64,000 bases of DNA from Moniliella sp. 'wahieum' (GCA_003971905.1 RSEE01000155.1:1-64000); one strand, 5' to 3'; shown: positions 2,996 through 56,949, counted from the stretch's first letter. Numbers and translations are program-made. Notes: generated by a model from the letters alone, not told the origin.

Positions 2996-5900
2996 TGCGC
3001 TGCCCTTGCTGCTCTCGCGCCGCACGCGCCGCTCCTTGCGTCGCTGTGGGGGGGGCGATAGGGCGGGGTCGGACGGGATGGCAGTGGTGTGAGTGTGCCG
3101 GCAGGGAGATTAGTGCCAACGGCGAGGGCGGACGCAGGCGCATTGGGCTCAGACTCAGACTCAGGTTCGGCCGCACTCCGTTCGCGCTCGTGTTCGCGCT
3201 CGATGTCCTGGTCCGGGTCGGAGGCAACCGAAGGCGGGTCGGAGGCAACCGAAGCGGGTCGGAGCCCGAAGCAGGCTGGGATCTGGAGGGGGTGGCGGGG
3301 CATGGGCAGGCGCAGGCGGGGGGGCGAGGGGGGCGAGAGGGGTGGGGGGGGGAGGACGGGCACGGGGATGGGGATGGGGACCGGGCGGGGAAGCACAGAC
3401 GGCGGGGAGGAGACTGAGGGACATGCAGGCAGGCCAGCGCGTGCGGAGCGGCTGGTGGGCCAGGGCGCGGAGAGCGGAGAGGTGGGTTGAGGGCAGGGCT
3501 GCACTGGGCTGCAGACGGTTGCGTTGCGTTCGGAGGGATGTGGCGGGGAGCAGGGCCCATCGGAGCAAAGTGGAAGCGTGTTGCAGGCTATGCTGGAACT
3601 AATAATGGCTGGCGCGAATGCATGACGAGCACACTGTCCGTGGGCGGCGTACCTGGCGAGTGCACTACTACTATACTTGCTACATGGCAGACCGCGTCTC
3701 CTGGGTGAGCGCCAGCCTGCGACAGGCTGCGATGAGCGATCTGCCAGCCGCCACTGGCCAACGCGCCCCCTCGACCCCGGCTGCGCTGCCGCGAACCGCA
3801 CAAGCCCCTGCCGACGGACGGACGCCGGCATGGGGGCGCAGGCGCACAGGTGCCATCGCCACAGCCTGCCCGCGGACCGCAGTCGCCAGCACTTCCAAAA
3901 GCCCCGTCGACTGTCCCAGGCAGACCCTGGCAGAGCCCTCGGGGATACGCGGTTGCACTCGGCCGCGGCGCTTGCCAATTTGCCCAATTCGGCGGGGGAA
4001 GGGACGATGGTGTGCTGCCTATACTGCGGGAAGGATCGAAGAGTTGCTGGGTGCCACGAAGCATTAAGCGCTGTTAGCGCTGAGCCTCTCAGATTCTCAG
4101 ATCTCAGATTCTCAGATCTCTCAACTGGCACAGCGACATAGGTGACTCAGTGGTCGGGATGTGGGGAGTATCCCCCGTCACACGTCACGCGTCACATGTC
4201 AGTCTTAGGCCAAGAGAGGGCTCAGCGTCAGGCTTCGGGGGAACGGGCAAGGGCGGCAAATTCATTGTTCAACTGAACGTTCATACGTCTCTCCCTGCAT
4301 CATAATGCTTCTGAAGTTCTGCCGGCTCAGCCTAAATTCTTAACCCTGAGCGCTGAGCGCCTGAGCGCCTGAACCTGAAATGCCTACATCCTAAGACTCT
4401 TCGGGGCCCAAAGGCCAAAGGCGCCCCATGGGGGGTTTACGCCTGCGAGTTACTAGTTACTGACGGCATGGTTTCGGCTATAGCGTGTCTCGCCCAGGCA
4501 GTGTGCGTGCCGAGGGAGGCGTACGGGGCGTACGTGCCCGCCGAGCCGAGAAAGGGAGCAAAGGCAGCGACCGAGTATGTAGTGCTGCTTTGTTTCCGCA
4601 GCCGCCGCGCTTTCTCGGCTCGCCTAACTAGGACCTGTGCAGTTCCTCGCTGTCCTGGCGTTGGCGTCCCATGCACCGTGGCCGATGCGCATGTCCTCCC
4701 GTGTCCAGGCGCACCGCCGTGACGCGTGACTGATTAATCATTCAACATGTGCCCCGCATCGACACGTGAGCGCGTAAGCAGCGCCCGGCGCCACGCCAGT
4801 GTGAGCCGCCACCTGCCGGTGTGTCTGGGAGGCACTCCGCGGCACCCGTGTGCACCCTGTGCACCCTGTGCACCCTGCCGGGAGACCTCCCACCTCCGAT
4901 CCGGCCCAGCGGCTCCCTCGCCGCCCGCCCACATCCAACCGAACGCGGCAGCCACCGCCAGCAGCAGCCAGCAGCAGCCAGCAACAGCAGCCACGCCTCA
5001 CGTGGTACGCTGCCTGCCAGCCTGAGTGCATTGGCGTTGCAACCGGCCGCATCTTCCTCACGCCTCACGCGTCCATGTCTTTTCACGAGTTGCACAACCC
5101 TGCGGCGCCCCGGTTCAGCCGGGCAGCGTCGCCACCCATGGCATTTGTCAGCTGAGACTCGCTTCAGCGCTTCAGCCGAGCAGCACAATCGTGCACCACC
5201 TCGACCAGGGCTCTCCATAGACGATAGACACGGCCAGAATGCATGGTGTCCAACGCTAGTAAACGAAAAGTAAACATGGTAGACTCTACTCGGCTGCTGC
5301 AATAAGCACTAAGCCCCGCTCCCTCGAGACTCGGATCCACCACTCCTGGTTCTGCTCTGCTCGGATCGCTCGTCTTCGGAACTCCGGGGGTCTCACCCGG
5401 TGGAGGGCTTCAAGCATCATGCAATCATCGACCATCGGTCACCGGTCCGGTCATCGATCATCGATCATCCGCTTCATCTACAAGTTAAACACGGTGATAA
5501 CCGATAACCTTATCAATCCACACCTGGATCGAATCCTTTTCCCGAAGGGCCTAAGGCCTAACAGGCCTAACATGCTAGCAGGAAATAAATTTGGGGGTTG
5601 TTTTGTAACAGTTGAGGAGGCTAAGCGAGGGGCCCAACAACAAAAGGTCCTCGGGTCAGAGACAGTGGGGAGAACGGCCGTGGCGCGGGAGGGAGCAGGA
5701 TGTCAGAGGCATCTCAGATATCATGCGTCAAGCAGGGAACAAGGACCAGAGGAAGTAGGGAGGAGCGAAATAGACGGGATGTAGGATTGGAAATTGGAGC
5801 GAGCTTCATGTCATTGAATCGGTAGCAGTAGCCTCTATTACGTACCAATATATAGCCAATGAGGAGACGTTGAACGATGTCCATCCCAACGCATCTTGTG

Positions 5901-6961
5901 GTCGCAATCCAGCCAATTTTCTCTACCTTTTCCTTACCGCCATGGCATGTACACCTGACAGAACCATATTGTATGGGACGCACTACATCCTCCAGAATCC
6001 AATCGTTTGTTTGTATTGCAACCAAGTCCGAACGAGACTATCCCCTCAAGAGACATTCCAGTTCCTCCGCTCCAGTCGCCACGCACAGCCAACACATCCG
6101 GATATGAACAGCGTGAACTACGTTTCTGTCGCTTGAGCATTCCTGCAACTGATACGCCGTGACCAATTGGGCCGCGATCAGAGATGAGATGGTCCTTTCT
6201 GATTGAAAGAGCTATAAGGAAGTTGATCGCCAGCACAGAGGGTGAATAGTAAGGTATGAAGTGGAAGAGTTGGACCAAGGAGCAAAGGGGACGTGCACAC
6301 AGATGAACAAACGAAGGCGCAAGCGCGGAGACGCGAACAGAGCAGTGACCAGTGTTAGTATCTCAGAGGATCTTTCTAGGGAAACAATTATCTCCATCAC
6401 GTCACAACGCGACGGGCCCGAGATGATTCTTCCGCAGTGGAAGCACAAGTTGTTTCATACCTCATTTTCCCCTCTATCCTGATCTCGAACGGCCCTTTTT
6501 GCTTGGTGCGGCAATAGTCAGTACTCAGTAAGGATGCTGAGAAGACAACGCCCCAAAGCGAAAATTGTTTCGACATAACGAATAGCTGGCTATCCATAGA
6601 GGAGCGGACTAGGTACGAGAGGATAGGCTCACTTCTCACCGTCATTATACGACCTCATGCACAGCTGGGTATTCTTCTTGGTGTGGGCGCAGAACAGTAT
6701 GCCCCGAATGGATTCATCGCCTCGTACCTACCCGACAGAAATATGCGGTGGCCATTGTGAACGGGTTGTGGTCCGGGACCTGGTACCATGATGCATAACG
6801 TGAACCCAACAGTCCGTAAGGCAGAAGAGTTGAGGGCGGATGCAATTGATGGCATGATTGCCGGTGGCCGCATGCAACGGAGAATGGTGCTGCTATGCCT
6901 TCACTACCTTGGCGATGGCCTGTGGAAGTTTGGAGCTTTCTGGGTCACTGCATCCTCTCGT

Positions 6962-9901: not shown

Positions 9902-10598
9902 GGTAGCTGAAAAGGAGCGTCTGCGTGCACGTACGTCTATACTAGGAGAATGGACGCGCTAAGACTCAGTGCCGGTGGAGAGCAGACAGAGGGATGCCCT
10001 CAGTGGGATAATATGCCTCACATCGTCGCCGCGTCACCCCTAGAGGGACCGATGGTATCAATGATGCCATTAAGCACAATGCCATGCCATGATCCATGAA
10101 TCATGTGAGGCGTGAGATCTGAGAAGCCTATGGTCCTCGGGGGAGTCTTGGCGCACTGCCAGGGTGCCCATCAAGTTTAAGCAGCCTACGTGGATGAATA
10201 TTGCATTAGGAGAAATCGAGGCGTGAGAGCAGTCTCGGATGAATGGCCCTTGGTAGCTGAAAAGGAGCGTCTGCGTGCACGTACGTCTATACTAGGAGAA
10301 TGGACGCGCTAAGACTCAGTGCCGGTGGAGAGCAGACAGAGGGATGCCCTCAGTGGGATAATATGCCTCACATCGTCGCCGCGTCACCCCTAGAGGGACC
10401 GATGGTATCAATGATGCCATTAAGCACAATGCCATGCCATGATCCATGAATCATGTGAGGCGTGAGATCTGAGAAGCCTATGGTCCTCGGGGTCTTGGCG
10501 CACTGCCAGGGTGCCCATCAAGTTTAAGCAGCCTACGTGGACGAATATTGCATTAGGAGAAATCGAGGCGTGAGAGCAGTCTCGGATGAATGGCCCTT
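9902..10598. repeat. Near-perfect tandem duplication, 350 bp + 347 bp
   Basis: GGTAGCTGAAAAGGAGCG...GAATGGCCCTT occurs at 9902-10251 and again at 10252-10598. The differences I found are a 3-bp indel near a G run and one T/C substitution. Confidence 0.95.
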
Positions 10599-11051
10599 CT
10601 TGTCCGGACCCTGGCCCACCGGGTTTTCATCTGAAGGAACACGGGTTGGCAAAGGCGTGAGGGGGGCGCTTTTGGGTTAGCTACTCCTAGTTGCTATTAG
10701 CCACTCTAGTGTTGCTTGTTTCTAGTTAACGTTTGACGTTTCCTCCGCCACCGGGCTACTCGTTGCGGGTGGAGAGGAGAGCGGCTGACACTGCCGACGT
10801 GCCGGCGTGCAAGAGAAGTGCGAGGCACCCGTGCACTGCCGCTGTGCCTTATCCAGCCGCCGATCGGGGGGGGGTGTGATCTGCGGCAGCGCAGTAAGTG
10901 GCAGGCCGTGCCTGGCCTGGCATTATGCATTATGGCCCGGCGAGTTCCCATCTCCGATACAAGGCAAGGAGGCCGCGCCCATCACGCAATTGCGACCCGA
11001 CGGCAAGCAACATCGGCCGTCTTTCCGCCACCCCCACCTTCGTTTGTGCCC

Positions 11052-12075: not shown

Positions 12076-12838
12076 CCTTTGCCCGCCCTGCATCCCACTC
12101 CTGTCTCGACTGTCTATCATGTCCCGCAGAGACCTCGTGCAGTCGAGCAAACATGTCATCATCACACCTAGAACATGGATGGGGAGGGGTGGGGGACAAG
12201 GTCACCTACAATCTCGGCTCCTTTTTTTCCTTATTCGCCCTGCCTCGACTCTTTTTCTCCCCACCCCCCATATTGCGTCCTCGCCGCTTGTTATCAAAAG
12301 TGATCGTCTGTGTTTCGGGGTATTTATTCGGTCTCCTCGTCTTCTATGTGGAGGTTAGCCCTGCTAGCTTTTTCTGTAACCTCTCCACCTTGCTCTTGCC
12401 ACACGATGGAGGAACCAGCCGTGTCCTTCTCCATCTTTTCTATGAGCCTCATCGTCGGATCATCACCACATTTCATCTTCACCTATAGGACCATCTCCTC
12501 GCCTCTGTCAGGCCTATGTACAGAAGGAAACTATTAAGTCCGTTTGTATACCCTGACCAGTGACTCAGTGGGACGTTTTAGTTACCTGCAATCGTCCTGA
12601 AGCTCCTCATGTCGGAAAGAGGATGCGTTATAATCTTCCAAGTCGCAGGACCGCAAAGAACAGTCAAGCTTCAAGCTACTAGTCGGCATAAATGTGGTGT
12701 GACCGGTGACCGGTGACCAAAAGACTTCACTCCCTCATGAAACATTTCAAAGACAATGGTGTATTTTTATTTTTTTCCTTGTTTCACAATTACGCCGCCG
12801 CGTTCAAATTTTTCTTGCTCTTCACCATCACTAGCACC

Positions 12839-14558
<1,720 letters not shown>

Positions 14559-17580: not shown

Positions 17581-20500
17581 GGTGGGGGTGGGGGTGGGGG
17601 GGGCGGGGGGGGTGCTGGCTAGCTATGGTGCACGTATTATTGCCGCGCCACAGCAGGCTGCCAGCGCCCGCCAGCCACGGCGGCCCAACCCTACTGACTG
17701 CGCCACACTGCACCCGCTCCCCTTACGTACGCCGCTTGGCGGCCCAGTGAGGAATGTACTGCGGTAAACTCGCGCACGCAGAATTGCATTGCGGGCCTCC
17801 GGACATGGAACCAACACCTACCAGACTACGCACGCGTGGTCGGCGTCATGTATTGGATGGTCAAATTTTCCAACAGAGGGAGCGAACCATCACACGAAAG
17901 TCTCCGAGACGGCCGCATATAAACAGCACGCACGAGGCAGCAGGTAAAGCGCTTCATCTGCTCCTGTCTAATCTTTGCACATGCTATGGATTCAGAGAGG
18001 GCCAAAAGATGATCGACTGATATGCACTGATGAGCGTTCTCACAGGTTAATGTGCTTGGCTATAACGAAATCGCCCTTTTCTTATCTGACGTTTGTGCTC
18101 CTGACAGAAGAGACGCTGAGAAAAACAGTGCCCAGATTTGAGAGTTGGAGTCCACACCCGTGATTGTGAAGTGCGGCGGCCGACGCAGACGCCGCGGTCC
18201 CGAGCACCCGCGAGAAAGCTTCATATAAACAACGGATGTGCCACAGTTGGAGAAAAGGAGAAGGGGTATAGGAACCCTACTATTCTCGCAAGGAGGGCGT
18301 GCTGGGGACGACGAGACAGCGGGGGGGCAAAAATGGGGAGTGGCGGAGACAATGCAATCACTACTAAAGAAGAAAGTTGGCATCCGGCCAGTACCACACA
18401 CTCATTTGGCTCTTTCTCCCCAATACGATTGTACCGAGAGGGCCGGACTTCCAACACGGATACTAATGAGCTCTAAGTGACGCAGATGATATCGTTGGTA
18501 AGGAGGGAGAGTATCAAGCTCTACCATCCAAAGTAATAAACATCAAAAGGTTAAGACTTCTCGCATACTGCTAAATAGTAGCTGACAAGTGGGCGCCTCT
18601 CTTTGGGGCTGAAGACACTTCCGACGATCTCCAAGCAATGAGATGATGAACCAAAAATTGCTCCATTTGCACGTAAAACAGCATTTGCATTTCAGAGACC
18701 TCACAGCAATAGAACGTACGAGATTGTGCTAGGGTATGACACAAAGTAAACGCGATACAAAACAATATTTCCTCCCCCATCACAAGAGAGGGAGCGAGAG
18801 TACATCTCAGTCTCCCAAGGGATGAAGTGCTGTGAAAAGGGAGGTAAGGCTGAACCGTGAGGCGTGAAGATTGAGGAGGGTGAAAGAAGGGTGACCGGGG
18901 AAACTGTTTGGAGTTCTTGAAAACGACGAGAGGAACCTTGAATAGGGGGAGGTGAATGGCGGTGACGCTTAAAGGCGTAATCAGTGGAGGAGACAGCGTA
19001 TGAACATTGAGTCGTAAGATGCGAAACTAATTCTAGGGCCAGTACTCGTCGCCAGAGTCTTCCCAAGAGCGTTGGCTCTTCCCATCTGCAGACACGCCGT
19101 GGTGCAGAAGTACCTCCTGCAAGGTATTCTTTCCACGCTTAACGTTCCAAAAGAACTTGGAGACGGCGCTGGCCGGAAGTCGGCCCTGGGCCACGATGCT
19201 AATAGGGAGAACCCCAGACTGGGTACGCTCGTCCTTCATCCGGGGACGTCTGGAGCTGACTGTGATCACACTCCCGTTCGTTCCGCTGGCACGGTCAATG
19301 AAAACCAGTGTGTCGACGAGGGCATTGGGGTTTGTGGCGTTGCAGTAAGGGTGGTGCATAGTGTAGAAATGTCTTCCACTTTGCCGTCCTCTTCCTCCTG
19401 TAGGGTGAGACGGAGACCGTTCATGTTTAACGCGATTAGCCATCAGCAGGACAAAGCAGAAACCGGGACACCTTCCAAGGTACAAAGACCCATTCGACTG
19501 GATTGGGCCGGTCGCCAGTGCGCTTGAACACGGCAAGGCTCTCCCGGATGGCCATATCGGCCTTTGGAGAGAGATGTTGAGTGAGGTAAAATGCGTAGCA
19601 AATGGTATTAGAGCCAGAATTGGTCCATTTGGACCAAATGCTGCCTCGCCGGGATTGGAACGATACCATACCTTTAAGACAACAGAGAACACAACGAAGA
19701 AGAGTAACGTTGCTGCAGGCCCAAATAAATGAAGATATGTATCCGGCGATATGGAAAAGTATATAAGGTCGGAAAGCGGAAGTGGGCGGATGAGTTGAAT
19801 GAGGAAGAGGGCGCGAGTGAAGAGGAGCTAGGAAAGCAATCGTGGTGCTGGAGAGGGGGCTCGGATGAAGCCTTGGAGAAGAGGTGGTGGTTGAGTGGAC
19901 GAACAGAAAAGGGAGAGACCGCCTGTAAAGTTCGCGGGCGGCCCGATCCATCCGTTGCAGGGGGTACAACCGAATACCCGACTTCATTATATACACCCTG
20001 TGACAGTCCTCACATGCCCTAGCAATGGGACGCTGCTGTGGTTATACGGAACACTGGAAATCGCTGCGAACCTGAGAACGCCTGATGAGTGTTCCTGAGG
20101 CCTGAGGCTCAGGCCCGATAGGCAGGTAGACCGGAAACGAAATCGATGCGCTTTTACACACACGTTTATTCAACAGTGTTTTTGTGGTTATCGATTATCG
20201 GTCTGTTTCCATGTGGTATACACGCGATGGGAGAGCAGCCAAGCCCTCTTTACGCCGTTGAGGACGTTGAGGGCCCCCACGCCCTCGCTGTCGCTTACTT
20301 CCTCGCACGTACTTTTTCGTGATCGACTTCAGCTTCATGCGGCCTCTATAGTACTAGCTCCTGGTGTCCACCATGCACCGCCGGCCATCGGCCGTCTCTC
20401 TGATCTAGAGAAAGTGAGACACTCGAACCAAGGTATGTACCGCAGTAAAATCCGTATCAAGCATAGGCGTCATGCAATGCATCCGACAGGGCCCCTCAGC

Positions 20501-21366
20501 AGTCTCGGCGGCTGCGCCTCAGCTCAGAGCGCAGTGTAGTGAATGTTGCGCGTGAACGTCGTGACCCGTGCGAACAGTGAACGTGAAATGACTTTGTCTG
20601 GGCCAGGCCTGCGCATAGCGCAGCTGCTCGGTTCGACGTTGGGCGTGCTCAGTATACGTTCAGTGTTCAAGTTGAACGTTGAAGTTCAACGTTCAACGAG
20701 CTTCATGCATCATGCATCATGATGCTGGGTGTCGGTACACCGGGGCTTCTTTCTCTACTTGGATCTTGGATCTTATCGATTATCGCACTGGTTCTACGGT
20801 GTTGCATGTTACACGTTGTCCACGTTGTCCACGTTGCCACCGGTTATGGATGGACGTGTTGACCCTGATTTCACTCAATACTGACGGTTATACTTTTGCC
20901 ACTGTGAATATTGAATGCACGTTTGGTAAGTATTGGTTGGTAAAAGTAACACGGTTTCGTGCACAGCGCCATCGCGTCCGACATACGCGTTACTAGGAAA
21001 CCAAGGAGAATTGGGGGTAGCCTTCGGAGACGCATCTGAGCAACGATAAGATCTAAGACCCAACTGTCACATGTCACACTAAGGCCGGCCTTAGGCCTTA
21101 TAGGCCTTATAGGCTTTACTAGCTTACTTCAGAGTGTTGCAGCCTACGTACGGGATGGCAGTTACCAAAAAGCACAGATAATAGGAACGAATGGCGGCCA
21201 TCTGAAGGTCTTGATCGACCTGATATCCTGGCAATTCCCCTGATTCCTTAAACGGGGTTGGCACTAACAAGCAACATACGCCGGATGAACGGGTCGATTT
21301 ATGTGCAGCGTTTCTTTGTCTCAGCCTTGAGCTCTGTCAATGATATGGTTACAGAATAGAGATAGG

Positions 21367-22196
21367 TGTCATGGGGGGGGTCCCGACCTCGGGACCCCCC
21401 CTGTAGTTTAGGGGTATAAAAACGTTAAACGTTAAACCCCTAAACAGATCAATCGGGGCCTCGTACGTTGGGTCCTGCTTCAGATGCTGGTCGAACCGAG
21501 CGGGTGTAGAGGCGAGGGAGAGACCCTCTAGTTTATTGGGCGGCTGCCTGGGTGCAAAGGCCGCAGTCCAGACCCTCCGAGGTATTAGGAGCCGCGTACG
21601 TAGGTCGTTAGACCAGTTGAAGGGGTCCCGGAGCTCCGAAGTTACTCTGTTCCTGGAAGCGTTATCACACTCGGTACGCTGTAGCTGGCGGGAACAGACA
21701 GAGTCCTAAAGCAGAGCAAGCGCTACTGATGTGAGTAAACGCGGCTTGCAGTGCACTCGACGTAAGTCATAAATTCGTAAGCGTAAGGGTGGTAGAAGGT
21801 GGAAGGACTAGAGAGGAACTGGTAGTCGGGGAGACCAAAGGTAGAAGACAGGATGGTCGACAAGGACCACAGCGAGCAAGCCTTAGACATGGCTGCTTAT
21901 ATATAGCAGAAAAGGAACCAGGCCTCAAGTGCCTCATGAGATGTGACAGGTATAGACAGAATGTGCTGCTGCGGGTGCAGCAGGAAGGGTTCTGACAAGA
22001 CTGGACGCAATGGGCACAAAAAGCATCGTACCGATAAGCCCATGCGACCATGGCGGGCCGCGGATGACATCCGCAGCAAAGATAAGGTGTCTACTGGCTC
22101 TCTCTCGCTAGTCTAACCGGACTGACGGGTGTTGGGCTGAGATGTCTACGACATGCGGGGCTCAGCGTCCGGAGATAACCGGAGCGCCCCGTAACA
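21367..22196 (-). mobile_element. Solo LTR (830 bp) of an LTR retrotransposon
   Basis: Starts TGTCATGGGG and ends CCCCGTAACA (imperfect terminal inverted repeat, TG...CA). Flanked by identical ATAGG at 21362-21366 and 22197-22201. On the minus strand a TATATAA (~21897-21904) precedes AATAAA (~21532-21537). Confidence 0.88.
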
Positions 22197-23820: not shown

Positions 23821-24061
23821 GAGTCATAGCTGGGCGTGCTAGTCATGCGCATCGGCGTTCAGACGTTCAGCGGCTCAACTCAGGGTCCCTCTAGTAGCTC
23901 TAGTCCACACATGCGTACCGGGTTACGCTGACTAGTGACTATAACGCAACGGAAAAGCCGTCTGTGCCCCGGCCTGGTCTGGGATAGATCCAAGATCTAT
24001 GATCTAACCCGCACTCTGACTCGGTTGCTAGCCCCGCTGCTAATGGGCAGCAGAGTGACTC
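23821..24061. promoter_or_regulatory. Three TGACTC (Gcn4/Cpc1-like) sites upstream of ARG3
   Basis: GAGTCA at 23821 and TGACTC at 24017 and 24056. Amino-acid biosynthesis genes are typical cross-pathway-control targets, but TGA-rich motifs are common in this window. Confidence 0.3.
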
Positions 24062-27866: not shown

Positions 27867-29189
27867 GGTGAGGGAGGGGGGGAGGGCCGGGTGCTGGAGG
27901 AAAAAACAGGGCGGTGGATTTGGGTTTGGCTCGTCGGGCTGGGTGGTGGACGGGCGGAATTGGGGCGGAATGGAGTTCGGCCGCGGGGAGGCGTGGGGAG
28001 GCAGGCAGGCATGTGTGATGCACTGTGATGCATGATGCATGGCACCGATGCTTTTGGGCCAAGAAATCAAATCAGGCAATCCTTGAGAAAACCAGAGACA
28101 AAGACAGAATTCCGGGGGCATCCCAAGTTGACCGCTGGGAGATGGAAGTGCAGCGTGCATGGTGGATGGAGGACACGGGGCGTTGGCACAAAAACATAAT
28201 GTGCTTCTGAAGAAGCGACTCTTCTGGTCAAGATTGTCATCCTTGTGCAGGGACCATGCTAATCTTCTCTGTATTGTTCCAAGTTTAACGATAGCAAGCC
28301 GAAGCTTGCGATACTAACTGGGAGGCCGACATGTTATTGCTAACGTAGTTGTATATTCGTCGCCACATGAAATTAAAAGGGCTTTAATTGACTTGCGGAT
28401 TCTTGCACTGCGCACACTATATTAAACCTAACTAGCTACAAGTCGACCTCTCAGCCTCTTGACATAGAGCGGCACACGGTGGTCCAACACCGCACTTTGC
28501 ATCGTAACCCAGAGCATACAGTGCAGCCGAGACGGAAAGAGAACCCGCATGGCGGTCCAGGCGAGAAGGCGCACCGCCTAGTACAAGATTATGATGGCTC
28601 ACTGAGGGATGAGGAGCGTCGACATGAGCGAACCCAGCCTCTCGGTGAGGACCGTCGGGGAATCTCTCCACAGAAGGGTAATAGAGGGTTACTATCGATG
28701 TCCCCCTCCTACAGTCTTTTGTCTGGCCGAGAAGACTGTATTAGTAGAGAGGGGGAGGCCACAAGCCAAGCGTTCCGTAAAGATCATGAAGATCATGCGG
28801 GATGTCGCAGTTCCAATTGAACAGCCACGTTTATATAGCACGGATGCAGTTGGGAAGGGCTTTTGCATATTTCTACGTTGTTCCTTATCGGCTGTTGCGG
28901 ATGGAATAGAAGCGCAAGAGTTTGATTGTCCAAAGAGAGGGGGGATGAGAAAACAAAGAGAGGATCACAGGGTTCAGAGTGACCAAAACGCACAAAAGGG
29001 AAGACGAATGGTGGGGCAAATGATAAAGTGTCTCTTCGCGGATCACACGTACAGGGGTCGCACAAGAGGAATGCAAGAGAAAACGTCGTGTGCGGGCAGA
29101 GATAAGTGGTAGCAAGCACGAGAGTCGCGTATACAGGTAGAAAACGCTGTCCTAATAACGGCCGTGAGGATGACGTATAGTAGTAGTGG

Positions 29190-31730: not shown

Positions 31731-34596
31731 TACCCTCTAACAATATAGAGACGAGGTGAACACCTCTTATTGGATCTGGGCGTCAGCTCGCGTAACAAGA
31801 TCACGTCTCTGTGCGCCGGAATGAGAGCCAAATGTTTTGCTTTGTGTACTCTCCAACCCTGATGAAAGTTTGGCCGGAAAGGCTGACATGGCAACAAGAC
31901 AGGTGTATAGAATAACTCCAGTCGCCGAAACTTCTCAATTCTGGCAGGATCGCAGCGGGATCCATACGGAGAAAAGGCTGGATCTGAAGAGACCGACGGT
32001 GTCACGGGCGGCCCCCGCCAGGGGGCTCACCCAGGTTCTTCTTGGGTACAATCCCTTAGGAGACCGAAGGACGACTCACGGTAGTTTCGTGCTTGGGCTA
32101 GTTGGTGAATCCGTTGACCGGAGCTAGGGGCGAGGAGAGGCCTTTGGTGGGGCGGCTGCATGTGTGGCAAGGATGCGTCTGTACCGGCTTGGGCCGTCTG
32201 AAACCTCCGGGACTTAGGGACGGGAGGAGGCAGAGGGGGACAAACACTGCCTCAACTAAGACTTGATAGATACTGGAAATCGACGCGGCCAAAGGAGGGC
32301 TCGCGGGACTGGACTGACGGATTGCTGTAGGACGAGGCCGGAAAGGAAGTCGGACGCCAACAAGAGAAGGCTGCCTGTACTGGATCAATTGGCTGGAAAA
32401 CGGACAGGAGTCGGACAGGATAGGCGGGAAAGGACAAGAATGGAGTGTAGGGAAAAGGATCCCCACACCGACCAGGGGTACAGGCTAAGTCAAAAAGGAA
32501 ACGGACACAAGAGGGGGTGTAGAAAGGAAGACACGTCAAAAGAGAGGTTGATCGCCACAGGCGCAGCGGTTGAAAAAGGAAAATAAGTGGTAACAGGGCG
32601 ACGGACGTCGCGAAGATACTGAATACTTGCTCTCCTTATTTGGGCCAACCGACTTAGACTTGGGCAGAGGGCGACTACTGTAGCGCGTACGCATAGCTAC
32701 TCGCGCCACCGTACATGGTGCAACCAACCATCGTCAAACTTGGTTGGGCTTGGGGGCACGCTCCACTGGGCATGTGCAGAGCAGGCGGGCTTTAGCTTGT
32801 TTATTAGAGGATCCAAACCGCAGCGGCGCTCAAAACCGTATGGAAGGAAGTCAGGGAGGCCTTTCCCGAGGCTTGACCTCGATCCAGACGCTCCGGGCAC
32901 TAAGGATGACCCCACAGTGCCCTTTGCTGCCTTCTGTGTCTCTTCCGTCGGTCCTTGATTCAGCTCTATCCCGTCATCCACTGACCACTCTATTGTCTGA
33001 GCTCATCTCAAACAGATATCTTTACATCTACCTACGCAAGTTCGCTTTAGCGAGCATGCCGATCACCCTCTCCTCCCACCTCTGCTCCCGTTGCAGTGCC
33101 TATACCTCTCCTCCCACCCCTGCGCAAAGTAGTTTCAGGCTCCACAAATGCGGGAATAGGAATACGAGAGAGCTTTCCCCATTCCTGTGCTACACTGATC
33201 CCGGATCCCTCCGCCCCACCGCATGCTTGCCGTCCATGCGTTCGCGACGAAGTCCACATGCGACTATATAGGGCGCCCACCAGGTCGGGGCAGCCCGAGG
33301 AGCAGACGGCTGACCTCCCTACTTCCACTAGCAATGCTTATTGCATTCGACTCCACAGCCCCTAACCCAGACCCGATCATTCGAGGCTCCTCTGGCCTCG
33401 CTCCCTTTTGTCGTGATTTCAGCCTACAAGGCGCCTCGTCTCTTTTTTCCGAAAACACGATCTTGCCCTCGCCTCCCCTCGACTCTTTTCCCACCGGTCC
33501 ATGAAATCCACACCCAAAACTACTCCCAAAAAGCGGGCTCATGGGCTTGATCCAGTCTGGTTGGTTCCACTCCCATTCTCGTAGAGACGGAGGGGCGATC
33601 AGATCTCCAATGATATGGCTATAATGCATGTAATGTACAAGCTGGTCAAGGGCCACGCCTGATAGACAGGCAGAGGATTTATATTGAAAGCGCAATAGGA
33701 GAACCGCTAAAATGGGAGTGCATGATTCGGATCCACTGTGGGGCTATACAGTAAGAAAGAGACGGAGAATACCATCACATGCATCACATCTCATTATGTG
33801 CGGGGCGCTCCCTTGGGATGGAAAAAAGTCGCCGGGCGCGCACACAATTAGGACCGAGAGGTGTAAGCGTGATGCCAATTTGCGTAGCCGTCTCCGTGCC
33901 CACACTCGGGCTTTATTGCTGGGTGCCGTGCGGTGCGCATGCACGTACTTAAAGACCAGCCCAACAACGTTTTCAGGTGAACGTTCCTCTCACAATTGGT
34001 CTCCTTTCACCAAAAAGCCGAGAACCATCACATCTATCACACCTGCTCCGACTCTGTGGATACGTGCATCAAGTTATGGGGTGTTCGGGGGCTAAGCGCT
34101 AAGCGCTAGGCGCTAAACGACAAGACGGCACATTATATCATGGTCGGTCGCGTGTGCGAATTGGAAAAACGGTGGAGGAGAAAAAATAGGCATTGGACAT
34201 GGACCAAAAGTGAGAAGCAGAGACGGAGAGACGCAGTATGGGATTCACACCAACTGCGGCGGCCCATCACATGTCACGTGCATCCCACCATGTACTTTGG
34301 GCGACTGCATGACGAAGGACTTGCGTTCGGCCAGGATGTATGGCGGCAAGGCCATAGGGTGTGTAGGAGGTAGCGACGGTAGAGGAGACTGGAAGAAGAG
34401 CGCCCTCAGATCTCACACCTAATAATCATCACATGCAAGAGTATACAGTCCCTCTTTGCTGGGTCAGATATAGATATGGGGGAAGAGAGGGCGGGCCGAA
34501 AAGGGGACGATGCGAGGGCCCCAACTGGGCCACATTATATAGGCCACCTCGCCGCGATTCCCGCATGCGTATTGCATTGCTTCCCGACCAATTCAT

Positions 34597-35085
34597 GGTA
34601 ACCGGTAACCGGCAACCGAGGCTACGGAGGACAACTTGGGAAAGAGTGCCTGGCTCAAATACAGATCATCGATCATCGATCATCCTAAATGGCCTAAAGA
34701 CCTAAGGCCCTAAGGCACAGTGCTTGCAGATATGGATATCTGAGAGATCTGAGATCTGAGACTTTATCTTAGAGAGCTTGAATCGGTGAGCCGGGGCAGG
34801 CACTGGCTAGGCCCGGCCTCGGCCTGAGGCTGCTGAGACACTGCTGAGATACTGCTCAGACACTGCCGAGACTGATGCATGGTGACCTGTGACCGGCCTG
34901 ACCGGTGACTCGGTGACTGTGACTAGGTGACTCTTCTAGTGAAGCTAGTGACCGGTGATCGATAATCGATGATCGATCAGATCTCAGATCGATTGTATCC
35001 AGACGTGCTCATCCGCACTGCGTCAGTGCAAACGTTCAACCCCGACGCAGACCGCTGGTCGGTGACCGGTGACCGGTGTCGGTGA
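34597..35085. repeat. Dense cluster of period-7 quasi-palindromic arrays (TNA + 4-bp palindrome)
   Basis: GGTAACCGGTAACCGG, GATCATCGATCATCGATCAT, AGATCTGAGATCTGAG, ATCGATAATCGATGATCGAT and GGTGACCGGTGACCGGTG all lie within 490 bp upstream of the bHLH gene. Confidence 0.8.
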
Positions 35086-36993: not shown

Positions 36994-37495
36994 CCTTGTC
37001 GGCCTTGTTGCCGGACCCGATGCGTGCATCGTCGTTTCTTGAGGCTTGCACCCTGAACTCTGGCCCGAGCTGGCTGAGCTGGTACGGGAACGACGCTTCT
37101 GCGTTGGACAGTGCGTGTCCTTTTTTCTGTTCGAGTACCCTCTATCGCAGCTTCCTTGAGCCATCCTCTGCCTGTGGGCTGTACCTGGTGTACGTAGGCG
37201 AGTGGTGCGGTAGGCACTTGAGTGGTCTGTGACGAGGGACTTGGTTCGGATTCCCGAGGTGATCGATTGGGCGTTGGTCTGGAGACGGCTACGAGATGGA
37301 GGAGACAGGGCCGCGAGGGTGTGAGATGTGGCCGGTGTTGTGGTTGGGCGACAAACATTGGCCAGGGGGTGTACATATGTAACCGAACTGGAGGAGCTAG
37401 TTGAAGTTAAAGCTTTACGCCTGAGGCGCTCGGGGATGAGTCTGAGAAGATGCGAGAGCGTAACAAAGACCAGCTCTGCATAAGCTCATCGCACA

Positions 37496-37519
37496 TGACG
37501 CGTGACGCGTCACGCGTCA
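37496..37519. promoter_or_regulatory. Perfect 24-bp palindrome containing three ACGCGT (MCB-like) cores
   Basis: TGACGCGTGACGCGTCACGCGTCA equals its own reverse complement. It lies ~700 bp upstream of the RasGAP ATG. A regulatory function is inferred only. Confidence 0.45.
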
Positions 37520-37690
37520 CGTGCTTCCACGCTTAGCTCAGCGGGGGCAGTGTGGCAGGAGGGGACTGAGTGTGATGGGCGTGACCTGGCGCGGCGCGGG
37601 AGGTGGAACCCTAGAGGGAGGCTAACGCGTGTGCGCCGCCTGGGCCGGCGGGGGGGAGGCCGTGGGGCAGCACGGGCTGGGCACTGGCGG

Positions 37691-43320: not shown

Positions 43321-43381
43321 CTTCAAGCTTCAAGCTTCAAGCTTCAAGCTTCAAGCTTCAAGCTTCAAGCTTCAAGCTTCA
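43321..43381. repeat. (CTTCAAG)8 heptamer microsatellite (AAGCTT + C)
   Basis: Eight perfect units plus CTTCA, upstream of TMEM135. Confidence 0.97.
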
Positions 43382-43903
43382 CTCGCATGGGCCATTGGTC
43401 ATCGGTCACCGGTCATCCGCCGTCCATCCCATGCACTCATGCGCCGCCCCCTCGCAGCCCAGACCGAAGGCCGAGACCCTGCGCAGACGTGCCAGAAGCC
43501 AAAGCCCCCCGCAGGCGCGCATTGCAATGTTGAAATGGGCTCGGCTGTCGGCTGGTGCCCCACGGCGTCTGTCTGATGCATGATGCCGATGATGCAGCGT
43601 TGCTGACGCATTTCCTGACACCCACTGCCCACTGTCCACACCAGCCGCAGCACATAGATACAGCACAACAAGTACATCACACGTCACGTGCCCTAACGCC
43701 TACCGCCATCGCGGGGCAAGCGCCCCACAAGCACAGCACGCCCCTCAGCTCAGCCTGGCGGGCTGGCACGCCGACATGGCGCGCCTCAACTAACCCTCAA
43801 CTCAACGCCCAGGCGCTGAGGCTCAGCGCTGAGGCTCAGCCCGCTCAACCCGGGCCAGGCCCTCCCGCTCGCCCCGCTCGCCTGGCAGACCATCCATCAT
43901 CCA

Positions 43904-45476: not shown

Positions 45477-46495
45477 TGGTTGGACAGAAAATAGCGACGC
45501 GCATCGGCCGGCGATGTGTCCGTCTGTTCTGGAGACGAAAAGAGAGCCCGATCCCTCCCTCGGTGACCGTACGCTGCTGTTGGTTGCCGTCGTCTGCGCA
45601 CTGAACGAGCAGCGCCTCTCCAAACCTGAGGCCTCAGGCCCTCAGGCCTCCGGGCCTCACTGGTCCTGGTCCAGCTAGTCCCTAGTCACCGTCACCGTCA
45701 CCTCCGCTGGGGCTTGGGTAGGCGCTAGCTCTGGCCCACGGATTGGGGTGGGCGCTGTGTCGCCCTGCGCTGGCTGGCCGCGGCGCGCCAACGTCATGCA
45801 CGTCATGCTCGACTCAGCATTGCGCAGCATCCATCATCCATCCCGTGCATCCCCCATCCCCTCGTACGGTATCACATAGCCCATGTCACATATCACACGG
45901 GATGTCACGTGTCACGTGGTACGTCGCAATGTCGCATGTCGCATGTCACACCACCCGTCGCTGGCTAAATTTCTGCCCCCGACCCGCGCCGGGCTCCAGC
46001 CATCGGCCGCAGCCAGTCCAACCGCGCGTGCGTGCGAGCCACTACCACCTGACCAGCAAACGCGATGCAACGCTTGATGCATGCGCGTGCCACGCATGCC
46101 ATGTCAATGTCACACGTCACATGTCAATGTCATTCGTGCCCGACGCGCCACGCCCCCAACGTCAACTAGAGCACAGGCGACGGCCTCGAGCTCCGTGGTT
46201 CCCGTGCAGGAAGCGTGCCTGGCGACGGGGGCTGTCTTCCCTCAGGCCTCAGGCCCTGCCTGAGGCCTCAGCCTGAGGACTGGGCCCCGCACGCGGATGA
46301 GGTTGGCCGCGGCCATCGGAAGACCAGGCCGCCTCCACCATCCTAAACAATACCAAAGGTGCAAAGGGGGCTAGTAAGCCCTCCACACCCCCTCGTTTCC
46401 CGCCTTGCGCCCCGGCCACGGGAGTGAGCTCAAAAGAACGAAAAAAACACACACGTCCGAGGCGGCCCGCACCCTAAGGCCTAACCGCTAACCCC

Positions 46496-48547: not shown

Positions 48548-51500
48548 ATGTCCCTCTTCCGCCCCCACAATGATACCCCCAACGGCTCCTTTGTCCACAG
48601 CAACAGCCTCCGCCGCGCGCCCCGGCCCTCCACCTCCAAGTCCCTCCGCCGCCCGGCGGCCAGCACGCTGCCCAACCGGCACGAGCGCATGCGCCGTGCG
48701 CTCGACGATGCCGCTGCCCTGGACCGTGATTCTGCCGGGTCCGATTCGGGCAGTTCGGGCGACGAGGCACCAGCGCCGCCGCCATCACATGCCATCCCGT
48801 CTTCGCTGGCGCCCGATACGACCGCGCTGTATTCCCTCGATGCGCCGAGCCATGGCAGCTTGCGTCTGGACGAGGTGGAGCGGGACGCGTCGGCTGCGCC
48901 TGCTGTGGCGGCACCGCCATTACCTGATTCACGTGTCCCTGCCCGGGATCCAATCGCCCCGTCGGCTCGGCACCCGGCGCACCAGGCACCGAGGTGCTGC
49001 CGACCCAGTCGCCGCTCCCACTTGCGCTGCGCCAAGTCATCTCGACCTCGACCCAGCCCGCGTTGATTCGCAGTGCCAGTCCCGCCAAGCCTGCTCAAGC
49101 CTTGGTTTCTCCCGCCTCGGCCAATGGCCACAACCCCGTGACGGCCGCTGCGTCGGCAGCTGCCTTCCCCCTCGCCTCTGTCTCTGCCGGGTCTGCTTCT
49201 GCTTCCGGTGCCGAGTCGAGCGAGCGGAGCGAGCCTGCGGTCGCTCCTGTTGTCGCCCTGTCTGACCCTAAGGACGGCAAGGCGGACGAAGATGGGATCA
49301 GTGAGGGGCTGCGCAACGCGCTCTCCACGGCACTGGACACGACCCGTTTAACTTCGATGGAGCCAGTGGAGGATGAGAGCGATTCGGATGCCAGTCCGTG
49401 GGCCAGCACGCGCGCCTGGCAGACCGACCCGGCCGCAGTGGAGCACCAAATCACCGGCTTTGCCGTCGCCTCGTCCAAGCGCAACGCCGAGTTTCACGCC
49501 ATCTTTGCCGATGCGCCCGAAGACGATTATTTGATTGAAGGTGGGTTTGGGCGGAAAAACTTGCTTGGGCTGGCTGCGCCTAGCTAGCGGTTGCCCAACT
49601 GAGTGCCTGAGTGCTTGAGTACCTGAGTACCGAGTGTGAGACCTGAGATCTGAGTTACTGACCCCATTCATTGTCGTATCGTAGATTATGGCTGCGCTTT
49701 GGTCCGCGACATTTTGCACCAGGGGCGTCTGTACGTTTCGGAGAACCACTTGTGCTTCAACTCGAACATTTTTGGCTGGGTGACCAACCTGGTTGTGCCC
49801 TTTGCCGACATTGTCTCGATCGAGAAGCGCAACACGGCACTTGTGATTCCCAATGCGATCACTGTGGCCACATTAACTGCCAAGGTACGTGATGTGCTCT
49901 GTGGTTCCTCTCCTCGCTACCGATTTCGCTCTGCTTTCCTCTGCCTTTGCCTGCCTTCCTAACCCACCCCACCACCCTACCTGCCCGTGCTGATGTACCG
50001 AGCGTGCAGTATACGTTTGCCTCCTTTCTTTCGCGCGATGGACGTACGATGTGATTCGGAACATTTGGAAGCTGTCGCATCCGTCGCTGGCCACAGGGCT
50101 GGCGGGAGCGCGCGACACGGACGAAGAAAGTGGTGCGGAGGCGACGGCTGAGGCGCGGTCCAAGGCGCGCTGTCCAAGCGCGCCCGGCTCCGGCGTAAGT
50201 TTATGGAGCGTAGGGAGAAACGGAGGAGACAAGGCATGGGCTCGGACGAAGATGGCGATGCGTTGTCGGAGGACGGGTTGTCGTTGTCCTCGTCTTCCTC
50301 GGAGGAGGAGGAGGAGGAGAAAGCGACGCAGAAGGCAGATGGGCCTGCGGCGAAACGGTCACGTCGACGACTGCACCCGACCGACGAGTGCGAAGATGGG
50401 AAGCGCAAAGAACATTATCCCAATGTGGTCATGGACGCCATCTTCCCCACGAGTGTGGAGACGTTGCACAACCTTCTCTTCACCACGGATTTCGTACGGA
50501 CGTTTTTGGTGGAGAACCAAAAAGTGTTGGATGTCGAGATTGGCGAGTGGGAAAAGGGGGAACAAGGCATGACCCGCTCCGTGGCCTACATCAAACCGTT
50601 GAATGCGTCGATTGGACCTAAGCAAGCCAAGTGCGTCATCTCGGAAACGTCATTGCACGTCGACCCAGCCCAGTACACCACCACCCTCACCACCACCCGC
50701 ACCCCCGACGTTCCCTCTGGCGGCTCGTTTTCAGTCAAGACGCGCACCTGCCTTACCTGGGCCGGAGGCTGGCGGACCAAATTGCATGTGACCTGTGCGG
50801 TCGAGTGGACCGGACGAAGCTTCATTCGCAGTGCGTACCCTCCCCCCTTTTTTTTCCGCCATCACAGATGGCGTCAAAGCCAAAGCGTCAACAAGGATTA
50901 GTGAACTGACGCGGACGCAGGTGTGATTGATCGGGCGTCGATTGAGGGACAAAAGGAGTACTACAAGGCGCTGCACAAGGCGATTGAGGAGTACATGCAT
51001 GCGCATGCGAATGAGTTTAAGGACCAAGAAGCCGACGAGGGCGAGGAAGAGATGGAGGAGGAAGAGGAGGAGGATCAGGCCTCCCTCGCTTCGCGCCACG
51101 CGAGTGTGGCAAGTAGTGTGGAGCCGGTGGGAACGGGCGGGGGAAGCAGCTTGGGTGCGCGGTTCTGGGAGGGGGGGCAGGGTGGTGCGTACGCTGGTGG
51201 ATCAGGTACGCCAAGCGTCGCTTACCACCCTCGTCCTCTCGGCCATGGTGGTGGTTCTGCTGGGGCTGAATATCTGGGCCATGCGCTCGGCGGACCGAGG
51301 CGGGCGGGCGGGGGAACGGGTGGCCAGTGGAACGGGTACGACAAGATGAGGCCGTGCTGGGCCAGGCGTTGCGACAAGCGCTCCACCAAGCCCTCTTTCC
51401 TCCGGACCAGCTGCCTGGTCACCAAGCCGACTCGCCACGCGATCAGGCAACTCGCCTCGCCCTCCTCTTGGAGCGCCAGGAACGTCAAGTCCAAACTCTC

Positions 51501-52920: not shown

Positions 52921-52950
52921 TGGAGGTGGGAGTGGGGGTGGGAGCGGGAG

Positions 52951-53022
52951 TGGAGGTGGAGGTGGAGGTGGAGGTGGAGGTGGAGGTGGAGGTGGAGGTG
53001 GAGGTGGAGGTGGAGGTGGAGG
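52951..53022. repeat. (TGGAGG)12 hexamer microsatellite just upstream of the CHS7-B ATG
   Basis: Twelve perfect units. Confidence 0.95.
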
Positions 53023-54047
53023 GGAGGCGCAAGGGCCGGGCAGGGCAACCAGCGGCAAGCGCAGCAGCACCACCAAACACGTACTTGTTTGGTCGATGAG
53101 CTGGGGCTGAGCGCTGAGGCTCAGCAACCCACGGGGGGTACTCTACTGCGCGACAGCGTCCATGGCGGAGAGACCGGCATGGTGCGCTGGGGGGGCTAGG
53201 CACTGGGCTGCCGCCGCCTCCCGCGTCGCCTGTCACATGTCACATGTCACGCGTCACGCCTGTGCATCATGCAGTTACCCATTAAGGATGGGCGTTGGGC
53301 ATCCGCCGCCTCTGCCGCCCTGCGCCTGCTCGCTTCGGCGCACAGCCGCTGCAGCACGGCGCCCCTCTGCCCCGCCCTCGCTCTCCCTCTGCAGGCCATC
53401 GCCATGAACCATGGCCATCGCCACCGCACTGCCCCCCGGCCACACTGCGCATCCGCTCGCCCCAAGCGGCCTCCCCGGTCGGCGCCCCTCGCTCCCACGC
53501 CCGCAGCCCACCACACTCCCGGCCAATCATCATCTCATCACCAGTCACTCACTCATCTTGCAAAATCCCACCGATCGTCTCCCCACCCCGCTTTCCGCCC
53601 CCGCACCCGGCATCAGTCGGGCACAGCCTGGCACAGCAGCCAAGCTCCCAGCCACCCGCATCCTGCCCCATCATGCATCAGACACCATCGTCATCATGCA
53701 TCAACATCCATCGAATCCACCATCTTGCTCCTCAGACAGGCCATGTGCACCGTCACCCCTTCGGTCAGGATACCATGCCCATCCTACTTTCCCATCCTGT
53801 TCCACGCCGCCTTCCTTTCTCCTGCCCATCTCTCCTCGATCCCCCACCAACCGATGGCACACAACCCAATTCTACCCAGTGCGTCATCTGGCCTATCCAG
53901 CCGAGCAGGCTTTAGCCGAGGGGGATGGGGAAAAGGAGCATTATACCACAAAAGGAGGGGGAAAAAAAAAAAAAAGAAGGTAGGGCAGCCCGCCCTGAAG
54001 CCTGAGAGAAGATCCATGCGCAGTGGCCAAGTCAGTCCGCGTCAATG

Positions 54048-55883: not shown

Positions 55884-56949
55884 CCTGGCGGGGAGGGGAG
55901 GGAAAGAGAGTGTGCGAGGGAAGAAAGAATGTGGTGTGGGGGGGGAGGAGGGGAGGGGGGGAGGGAGACGAGGGGAAGGGAGACAAGAGCGAGGGGCGAG
56001 AGGGAGGGGGAGAGGGAGAGGGAGAGGGAGAGGGAGAGGAGGGGCGATGGAGGGGCGATGGAGGGCGAAACAAAAAGCCGGCGGCCTCCAATTATACTCT
56101 GCCGTGTTGCGACTAGCACACTGTGCAACCCAGAAAGCACATGCTTTTCTGGCTCGGTGGCATCTTTCAACGCTGCAAAGCGTGATTAATTCGTGATTGG
56201 CGCGAGCGAGCGGGAAAACGCCCCACACACTGGCCCCGTGGCATCGTGATCGGCAGTCTAGTCAATATTCAAACATTCAATATTCACGACATCCTAACGT
56301 GGGTGATGTTGATCGCCACGGGGCGACTGGGCACGGAAGGAAGCTTCACTAGCTCTTCACTTCTCCGCAGATGCATGTCACATGTCTATCATGCACCGTG
56401 TGGCGCTACGAGCTACGGACAATATCGATTGTAGCGGCCCGATTTGTCGCCTGTCGATTGTCGATCATCTCGATAACCCATCTCCTCAAGCTCTATCTCG
56501 CACGCGCTTGCAACCATTAATAGCTTCAGGCTGGCCTCAGTTTCTGTAACCATGTAACCGCCAAATACGTAGACTTCTAGTGACTATCTTTCCACCTCCC
56601 GGGGTCTACAGAAAGACGATGGTTTACATATATATTCCTATCTATGAGGCTGCTTGTTCTTGGCTACTAATCTTTTTTCCTTTCGAGGCTGGCGAGCAAA
56701 GACGATGCACAGCTGAACACCTTGTTGCAAGAGTTGGTCAACGTGCGTCGGTTCCAAACATACCAGGAGTTGCTTTCCTGTATTCAACAAGTCCATCGGT
56801 TTTCGCCTCCAACTAATGGGCAGAACGTTGAAATGCATCTCTATGTTGTGTGCATTTCATTGACAGAGCTTGAGGCTGGGACAGGGGGAACGCTACGTTT
56901 AAACCGAACCGTTCTCATCTTGCGGGGGTTATTTGAAAGCGCCACAAGA

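Follow-up and report, generated by a model that had tools for sequence, protein, structure and literature searches.

Flank-templated TNA heptamer arrays in non-coding DNA of Moniliella sp. 'wahieum' and their probable origin as transposon excision scars

The non-coding DNA of a 64-kb stretch from Moniliella sp. 'wahieum' (GCA_003971905.1, RSEE01000155.1:1-64000; the whole stretch, with a G+C content of 58.9%, is called the window below) carries short tandem arrays of seven-base units that differ in sequence and follow one rule, a TNA triplet (N, any base) joined to a 4-bp palindrome. These arrays had been described in an initial annotation of the window as period-7 repeats of A..T-ended palindromes joined by one base (AxyyxT+N), and this description holds, since the palindrome named was present at 28 of 28 coordinates. 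The analysis presented here suggests that the units are scars of a cut-and-paste DNA transposon that inserted and excised time and again, duplicating 7 bp of target sequence and leaving its flanks sealed as hairpins, a reading that we hold to be probable, if far from secure.

Two TNA triplets with the same N on either side of a 4-bp palindrome (TNA-pal4-TNA) were found 71 times, against means of 1.71, 2.28 and 3.84 in Markov shuffles of order 3, 4 and 5 (100 shuffles per order, with maxima of 5, 7 and 10). None of the other 15 outer-base classes around 4-bp palindromes was enriched (0.3-2.9 times the null), and the same was true of TNA triplets with a palindromic spacer of 2 bp (5 versus 5.8 expected) or 6 bp (1 versus 0.4). 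The comparisons with a Markov null and with other spacers and outer bases, both proposed in the initial annotation, therefore agree with its view of a specific rule. Palindromes of 6 bp with A..T ends succeeded each other at a distance of 7 in 26 cases and at a distance of 14 in 13, while the distance-7 counts were 4 for C..G, 1 for G..C and 1 for T..A palindromes. Tandem runs with a perfect period of 7 and a length of at least 14 bp numbered 56 (3.4 in order-3 Markov shuffles), compared with 14 of period 8 and 12 of period 9, and a search for five forward bases beginning with TNA and followed by two mirrored ones gave 90 hits in 42 loci where the null gave 0.45 hits in 0.4 loci. Palindromes as such were not over-represented in the window (51 even-centred palindromes with arms of 5, versus 54.5 expected). 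Thirteen of the 16 possible palindromic cores were in use with identical N and 15 with any N, so that the 14 counted earlier was not exact although the nearly full range of cores was borne out; only TNA and the spacing are common to all of them, and we rejected, as the initial annotation had anticipated for a single motif, an array of transcription-factor sites with one shared recognition sequence. The base N was C or G in 60 of the 71 same-N cases. Its composition roughly followed availability (A or T in 11 of the 56 chains defined below, versus 29% of the unmasked TNA sites; P = 0.08), and no strong base preference was seen at the founder sites outside T and A. The TGA or TAA stops at the junctions, pointed out earlier, are there by construction and need no separate explanation. 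The pattern is lineage-specific: it occurred 10 times in 38 unrelated metagenome contigs (307,882 bp) that were chosen because they encode relatives of the ornithine carbamoyltransferase (OTCase) of the window, the closest having 60% protein identity and none offering orthologous spacers to align. Versions of the rule lacking TNA were rejected, most of their 53 hits being second readings of TNA arrays. As a separate observation, 13 pairs of TNA triplets at a distance of 6 bp had complementary N and an odd-palindromic spacer between them (5.4 expected).

The sequence of the cores is explained by their surroundings. We grouped the 71 same-N hits into 56 in-phase chains and compared the two bases outside each of them with the core. 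The chain continued on the right only in 19 cases, on the left only in 13, on both sides in 16 and on neither in 8, which means that 48 of the 56 had a full flank match on at least one side (12% by chance; P = 5e-36). The right continuation has the form TNAxy.y'x'.TNAxy, and the left one is its reverse complement. The palindromic core is the mirror image of the dinucleotide adjoining the founder TNA, and this excludes both a fixed binding motif and fixed or left-over transposon ends; it also gives substance to the idea, put forward in the initial annotation, of a mutational process such as hairpin or template-switch repair at TNA. That the second TNA was copied forward is clear from N, which was identical across both triplets in 71 of 88 cases; it was complementary in only 8. 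In 32 of the 56 chains the founder was one-sided, that is, the repeat did not extend into the other flank. At the same time, palindromic targets were in excess: among 29 single scars (as we call the units for brevity) with a full right match, 13 also matched fully on the left, versus 1/16 by chance (P = 6e-9). Neighbouring units carried different but still palindromic cores in four pairs and were broken by one base in seven. At 53231-53259, the core after a unit in which the y base had changed from A to G is CGCG and not a broken palindrome, and around 34975 both sides of one founder (GA-TCA-GA) had been used, with TCGA cores on the left and GATC cores on the right. Such mixed arrays fit re-mirroring rather than slippage alone.

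The main product, with a net gain of seven bases, reads equally well as a 5-bp duplication with two added bases or as a 7-bp duplication with two replaced, and it is the minor products that discriminate. We described any product as w (seven bases, nnTNAnn), followed by p mirrored bases and by w minus its first d bases. Four products other than +7 were enriched, namely p=1, d=0 (+8; 6 loci versus a null of 0.07), p=2, d=0 (+9; 6 versus 0.2), p=2, d=1 (+8; 7 versus 0.13) and p=3, d=1 (+9; 4 versus 0). TNA was the commonest of the 16 centre classes in each (6 of 21, 6 of 18, 7 of 13 and 4 of 10 loci, respectively). These variants hold two complete copies of nnTNAnn around the mirrored bases, as in CATCACA TG CATCACA (33773) or TCTCAGA T TCTCAGA (4087), and they also account for the arrays of period 8 and 9 placed at the same positions by Tandem Repeats Finder. 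Because two full heptamers are retained in them, the event behind the products is the duplication of 7 bp around a central TNA, with mirrored bases at the joint. The unit then takes the form abTNAxy -> abTNAxy.y'x'.TNAxy, where the last k bases of the first copy are mirrored in place of k bases of the second, and k is mostly 2. The 54 loci with a net gain of seven (p = d) comprised 21 with k of 2 or 3, which are not separable because the mirror of A is T, 7 compatible with 1, 2 or 3, 6 with k=0, 2 with 0 or 1, 3 with k=1, 5 with k of at least 4, and 10 in which a palindromic heptamer allows any value from 0 to 3. The class with k of at least 4 covers the units with complementary N and two long perfect palindromes (37496-37519 and 20671-20697). 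By analogy, this spectrum of mirrored lengths looks like that of hairpin opening.

Three other constructions were tried and rejected. A 5-bp duplication plus two P nucleotides fits the main product and leaves the full 7-bp copies of the +8 and +9 variants, as well as the excess of palindromic left flanks, unexplained. A 3-bp duplication of TNA with hairpins predicts forms that were not enriched (TNATNA, with 76 hits versus 92 expected and 35 loci versus 46.5; TNA-pal2-TNA; TNA-pal6-TNA) or that gave no hit (TNA-pal4-pal4-TNA and TNA-pal8-TNA). An inverted duplication of the whole TNAxy would make N complementary, and covers only the minority with k of at least 4.

A series of steps that could yield these products may be proposed. 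We infer insertion, hairpins and order of ligation from the finished sequence, none of them having been directly observed. The element would cut nnTNAnn with a 7-bp stagger on insertion; on excision, its transposase would seal both flanks as hairpins, and a host nuclease would open each hairpin k nt (about 2 nt) off the tip. With k=2, one strand would gain a 4-nt palindromic 3' overhang (xyy'x') and the 5' end of the other flank would be recessed by 2 nt. If one overhang were then joined across the break to the recessed end while the other was trimmed, p = d = k would follow with a net gain that is always 7, so that +7 would dominate whatever the value of k. At a palindromic target heptamer, the two overhangs would be identical palindromes, and thus cohesive, which should ease repair and lead to the over-representation of palindromic targets among surviving scars, as is seen; the 5-bp duplication model does not predict it. 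Since the scar itself would contain a palindromic heptamer, it may become a favoured target for the next visit and arrays could grow, ordinary slippage probably helping to lengthen the larger ones. Two features expected of such footprints were found, a target duplication kept on both sides of the empty site (in the +8 and +9 variants) and junction bases that mirror the adjoining flank like P nucleotides, with mirrored lengths from 0 to at least 4 and a mode of 2.

The distribution of the units bears on their nature and age. The coding mask, built from open reading frame (ORF) log-likelihoods based on codon usage and from Pfam-supported ORFs, marks 40% of the window as likely coding and leaves about 38 kb unmasked; it is incomplete, and "non-coding" is therefore approximate. 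Only one of the 56 chains lay within the mask (P = 1e-11). This outcome of the intergenic versus coding comparison, also suggested in the initial annotation, is expected because +7 insertions shift the reading frame. Half of the chains (28 of 56) fell in three 2-kb bins (4-6, 20-22 and 34-36 kb). There were 42 perfect 12-mer loci (null 0.27) and 32 with one violated constraint (null 8.7), and those with two violations showed no detectable excess (88 versus 85), for which reason we conclude that the visible scars are young or still arising. With about 65 scar loci in the unmasked DNA, there is approximately one per 600 bp of non-coding sequence. The same TGAGA TC TGAGA scar is present in both copies of a 350-bp tandem duplication (10113 and 10463) and is thus older than that duplication. 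The duplication itself spans 9902-10598 (copies 9902-10251 and 10252-10598, 98.9% identical with 3 gap positions), and both copies also share a non-TNA unit, CATGA TC CATGA (10088 and 10438). No informative 7-bp indel was found among the paralogues of the window (the 350-bp duplication, an inverted block with the Chs7-like genes and two dispersed repeats), the two 7-bp gaps detected breaking the rule.

The closest known kind of sequence is the excision footprint of transposons that form flank hairpins, with P nucleotides as at V(D)J coding joints. Hairpins on the flanks at excision have been shown for hAT, Transib, MULE and RAG, according to the available text of PMC5499845, and in that of PMC5873905 Ac/Ds leaves P-nucleotide footprints in Candida albicans, with 28 types in 128 excisions and mirrored tracts of at most 3. 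The units described here resemble such footprints (hAT elements such as Ac/Ds, MULE, Transib, and the P nucleotides of V(D)J joining, as the accessible parts of these sources present them) in the duplication kept on both sides, the mirror bases templated by the flank, and a spectrum of lengths with small losses. They are set apart by a 7-bp duplication centred on TNA, by the dominance of one product (two bases mirrored, two lost, net +7), far stronger than in the Ac/Ds series as far as its available text goes, by a density sufficient for tandem arrays, by the growth of those arrays, and by the fact that no element is in view. A 7-bp target duplication is said to be in print for Galileo of Drosophila. 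It is also given, in the part of PMC12730594 at hand, for two kinds of basidiomycete cut-and-paste elements, the hAT7 families found in rust fungi and Kyakuja from Laccaria bicolor, hAT chemistry making use of flank hairpins; the same text lists 8 bp as usual for hAT, with variants of 5, 6 and 7 bp in print, so that among hAT elements the present duplication is compatible only with hAT7. That part of the source gives neither a TNA-centred target nor footprints for hAT7 or Kyakuja, and no hAT or KDZ transposase domain was found in the window.

Several other systems were considered and rejected. PIF/Harbinger elements usually duplicate TAA or TTA. They share with the window a duplicated T-N-A triplet, 3 bp long in the accessible text of PMC12730594, whereas the unit is 7 bp here, TNATNA is not enriched and N is mostly C or G. 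The T1 transposon of Cryptococcus was dismissed as a source, no target motif being reported for it in the available text of PMC9942834. Footprints of this small palindromic kind, inserted between two target copies, are also left by Tc1/mariner. Such a footprint consists of TA plus fixed bases from the element ends, while the bases inserted here vary (13 to 15 cores), and are copied from the flank and not from a constant element end. Micro- and minisatellite slippage likewise repeats a short unit head-to-tail, but a microsatellite born in this way has a free unit sequence and at least two full copies at birth; slippage predicts neither a TNA rule nor palindromic cores, one-sided 12-bp founders of 1.7 units or re-mirroring, and 28 of the 56 period-7 runs obey AxyyxT+N. 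A genome-wide pattern of TNA-centred heptamer scars was not described in the full texts searched, a provisional result as subscription papers are largely outside their coverage. Arrays of CACGATT/CGTGATT had been put forward in the initial annotation for Ustilago maydis; nothing on them was found in the literature searched, and in the window these heptamers occur as scattered single copies only.

Several observations weigh against excision scars. Among the 267 stop-to-stop ORFs of at least 110 aa in the window, no transposase family (hAT included) was detected with Pfam at E <= 1e-5, a result limited to what the window itself encodes. A search of the window for inverted-repeat pairs with a TNA duplication of 7, 5 or 3 bp gave nothing but arrays that matched themselves, and a candidate element-end motif paired with nothing there. 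The units are very dense (42 perfect plus about 23 once-mutated loci in 64 kb), and an element with no copy here would have had to move very often and fairly recently. Published hAT footprints are more varied than the products in the window, where about 54 of the roughly 70 loci that can be recognised gain exactly 7, although footprints with larger deletions are invisible to a pattern search made without the ancestral sequence. The longest array, with 8.7 units (43321-43383), would require many visits to one site unless slippage helped. Finally, not all period-7 repeats are explained. The 56 runs split into 28 of the AxyyxT+N type, one of the C..G type and 27 that fit neither; of these 27, only 10 contain TNA and 8 hold any 4-bp palindrome, both close to chance. 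Such non-rule runs are still about twice as numerous as those of period 8 or 9 (for example, ACTCAGC x3.6, TTGCTCA/TTGCCCA x9.4, TGCAGGT x3.7 and GGGCTGC x3.4), and are found, among other places, at 1798-1822, 35266-35331, 41126-41151 and 47026-47049.

The absence of an element and a transposase from the window, the high density, the uniform product and the clustering would also be accounted for by a host-encoded or domesticated nuclease or transposase that breaks nnTNAnn with a stagger, the repair writing +7 with no mobile element at the site. We regard this as unlikely, since a single break yields either a duplication (from filled staggered nicks) or mirrored bases (from hairpin ends), and the presence of both is most simply an insertion followed by an excision; besides, we know of no host enzyme that makes staggered nnTNAnn breaks repaired in this way. 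It is quite unlikely, in our opinion, that an undescribed kind of agent is behind the +7 events, either a TNA-centred transposon with a 7-bp duplication and no recognisable DDE transposase or a domesticated hairpin-forming enzyme that rewrites promoter DNA. The mirrored bases directly adjoin their template, and this is also what replication template switching would produce if the nascent strand folded back, mirrored two or three of its own bases and realigned seven bases upstream, slippage then extending the repeat. The palindromic left flanks would offer 3-nt homology for that realignment, and long perfect arrays such as the 8.7-unit one resemble slippage. We nevertheless consider template switching very unlikely: any complementary pair should serve, yet TNA gave 71 hits where ANT, CNG and GNC gave 1, 2 and 8; palindromes in general are not in excess; partial left matches show no bias toward the base adjoining T (3 versus 3); and the +8 and +9 variants with their complete 7-bp copies have no natural place in it.

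That the arrays were selected as cis-regulatory or structural sites, for instance of a protein reading TNA spacing or DNA shape, seems highly improbable. They are indeed intergenic and some stand near gene starts (23927, 53231 and 56262), and certain units equal words such as ACGCGT (37496-37521), which we take to be a known fungal promoter or regulatory word. On the other hand, 13 to 15 different cores are in use, set by whichever two bases happened to flank the founder TNA, and once-mutated copies are common. The shape- or spacing-reading protein entertained in the initial annotation gains nothing from these data, because flank templating, one-sided founders and full copies in the +8 and +9 variants are marks of how the DNA arose and not of function; a secondary co-option of arrays for regulation is possible. 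As for an artefact of sequencing or assembly, it would neither avoid coding DNA nor be templated by local flanks, and we give it practically no credence.

If the units are excision scars, this genome would keep a dense and legible record of transposon traffic, in which the target (nnTNAnn), the stagger (7 bp) and the opening and joining of hairpin ends by the host (mostly 2 nt off the tip) could be read. They would also explain how a class of heptamer tandem repeats comes into being and how new palindromic hexamers appear in promoters. AxyyxT is the shape of many dimeric factor sites, and should an undescribed agent be responsible, heptamer arrays and new AxyyxT hexamers beside genes would be a regular source of regulatory variation. 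The loci are listed in Table 1.

Table 1. Loci carrying TNA heptamer units and their variants in the window. Units called scars are putative excision scars; +7, +8 and +9 give the net gain in bases.
Position	Strand	Feature
4087..4123		TCAGA scar array: one +7 unit (4097-4106) between two +8 units (TCTCAGA T TCTCAGA at 4087 and 4102)
4178..4201		TCA lattice with mixed CGCG and CATG cores
4345..4372		TGAGC scar: one +7 unit, then +8 units (CTGAGC GC CTGAGC)
4448..4461		AGTTACT x2, palindromic on both flanks
4720..4740		TGACGCGTGA scar and TGATTAATCA with complementary N (mirrored tract of at least 4)
5449..5469		TCATC GA TCATC GA TCATC, founder of right type
5548..5572		TAAGG CC TAA scar and +9 variant (CCTAACA GG CCTAACA on +, equal to TGTTAGG CC TGTTAGG on -)
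6518..6529		Single scar TCAGT AC TCAGT
10113..10124		Single scar TGAGA TC TGAGA, copy 1 of the 350-bp tandem duplication
10463..10474		TGAGA TC TGAGA scar, copy 2 of the 350-bp tandem duplication
10921..10934		CATTATG x2, both flanks
12664..12677		TCAAG CT TCAAG scar, between the Chs7-like and DEAD-helicase genes
12699..12718		TGACC GG TGACC GG TGACC
20094..20115		CCTGAGG x2, then mirror CTCAGGCC
20186..20199		TTATC GA TTATC
20257..20272	-	+9 variant CCTCAAC GT CCTCAAC, two full 7-bp copies and 2 mirrored bases
20671..20721		TGAACGT units abutting TCAACGT units (opposite polarity; 27-nt odd palindrome 20671-20697), then TCATGCA x2.7
20771..20784		TTATC GA TTATC
20903..20916		TGAAT AT TGAAT
21045..21118		TAAGA TC TAAGA; TGTCACA x2; GGCCTTA x2; +9 units CCTTATA GG CCTTATA
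21420..21437		AAACGTT x2.6
23927..23940		TGACT AG TGACT, about 160 bp upstream of the OTCase start codon
24162..24194		TGATGCATGA and TCATGCA x3
28024..28041		TGATG CA TGATG CA TG
30863..30903		CATCATG/CATCAGA lattice, left-type scar at 30872
33773..33788		+9 variant CATCACA TG CATCACA
34091..34116		GCTAAGC x3.7
34267..34276		TCACATGTCA, decayed flanks
34406..34415		TCAGATCTCA, decayed flanks
34597..34618		GGTAACC x3.1
34664..34684		GATCATC x3
34693..34716		+8 units CCTAAGG C CCTAAGG
34739..34761		+9 variant (TCTCAGA TC TCTCAGA on -) overlapping GAGATCT x2.6
34881..34990		Dense lattice: TGACCGG, TGACTCGG (+8), TGATCGA, TAATCGA and TCAGATC units; both flanks of founder GA-TCA-GA used
35060..35078		CGGTGAC x2.7
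37408..37417		TAAAGCTTTA, complementary N
37496..37521		TGACGCG x2 abutting TCACGCG x2 (opposite polarity; 24-bp perfect palindrome 37496-37519, three ACGCGT), upstream of the RasGAP-like gene
43321..43383		Longest array, CTTCAAG x8.7, left-type boundaries
43404..43417		Left-type scar GG TCA CC GG TCA
43572..43585		TGATG CA TGATG
43813..43840		TCAGCGCTGA, complementary N, within period-13 array
45625..45659		CCTGAGGCCTCAGG (mirrored tract of at least 4) and +8 units CCTCAGG C CCTCAGG
45792..45807	+	+9 variant CGTCATG CA CGTCATG
46110..46126		TCACACG / TCACATG lattice
46240..46278		CCTCAGG x2 and TGAGGCCTCA
46473..46493		Left-type scar CC TAA GG CC TAA, then CCGCTAA
48372..48385		TGAGT AC TGAGT
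49637..49653		TGAGACC / TGAGATC lattice
53106..53125		GC TGA GC GC TGA, sole chain inside the coding mask, at an ORF edge
53231..53259		TCACA TG TCACA TG TCACG CG TCACG, mutated unit re-mirrored
53669..53705		Two left-type scars CA TCA TG CA TCA
56262..56288		TCAATATTCA twice, just upstream of the S28 peptidase ORF
56545..56559	-	+8 variant GGTTACA T GGTTACA
61528..61541		TCAAC GT TCAAC

The genes identified with Pfam in the window are ordinary housekeeping genes, namely those for ZPR1, two paralogues of the chitin-synthase chaperone Chs7, a DEAD-box helicase, OTCase, Suf/RNA14, a RasGAP, a protein kinase, a VASt-domain protein, an S28 peptidase, an SNF2 helicase and a GH5 glycosidase; Chs7 is a fungal family, which makes a fungal source the most likely. 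In several conserved genes the coding sequence is spread over overlapping ORFs that differ in frame (ZPR1 at 6965-8401, the DEAD-box helicase at 12741-14555 and the kinase at 43907-45641), where introns or assembly frameshifts are possible. Both Chs7-like genes and their neighbours are contained in a collinear inverted paralogous block of about 4.4-6.6 kb and 62-83% identity (11028-17606 versus 48521-52941), the DEAD-box helicase gene being near the first copy only. Two pairs of short dispersed repeats were also found, one direct (8623-8883 and 31481-31731, 77% identity) and one inverted (21219-21363 and 56837-56982, 73% identity). The 9-mer TGAGGCTCA occurs five times, at 20103, 43817, 43830 and 53115 and as its reverse complement at 46268, two of these copies lying inside the period-13 array at 43813-43840. 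Long near-homopolymer tracts rich in G or C are present at 17581-17614, 38081-38122 and 40623-40661, and a (TGGAGG)n hexamer repeat of about 110 bp (52921-53034) lies near the 5' end of the second Chs7-like gene, on the opposite strand.

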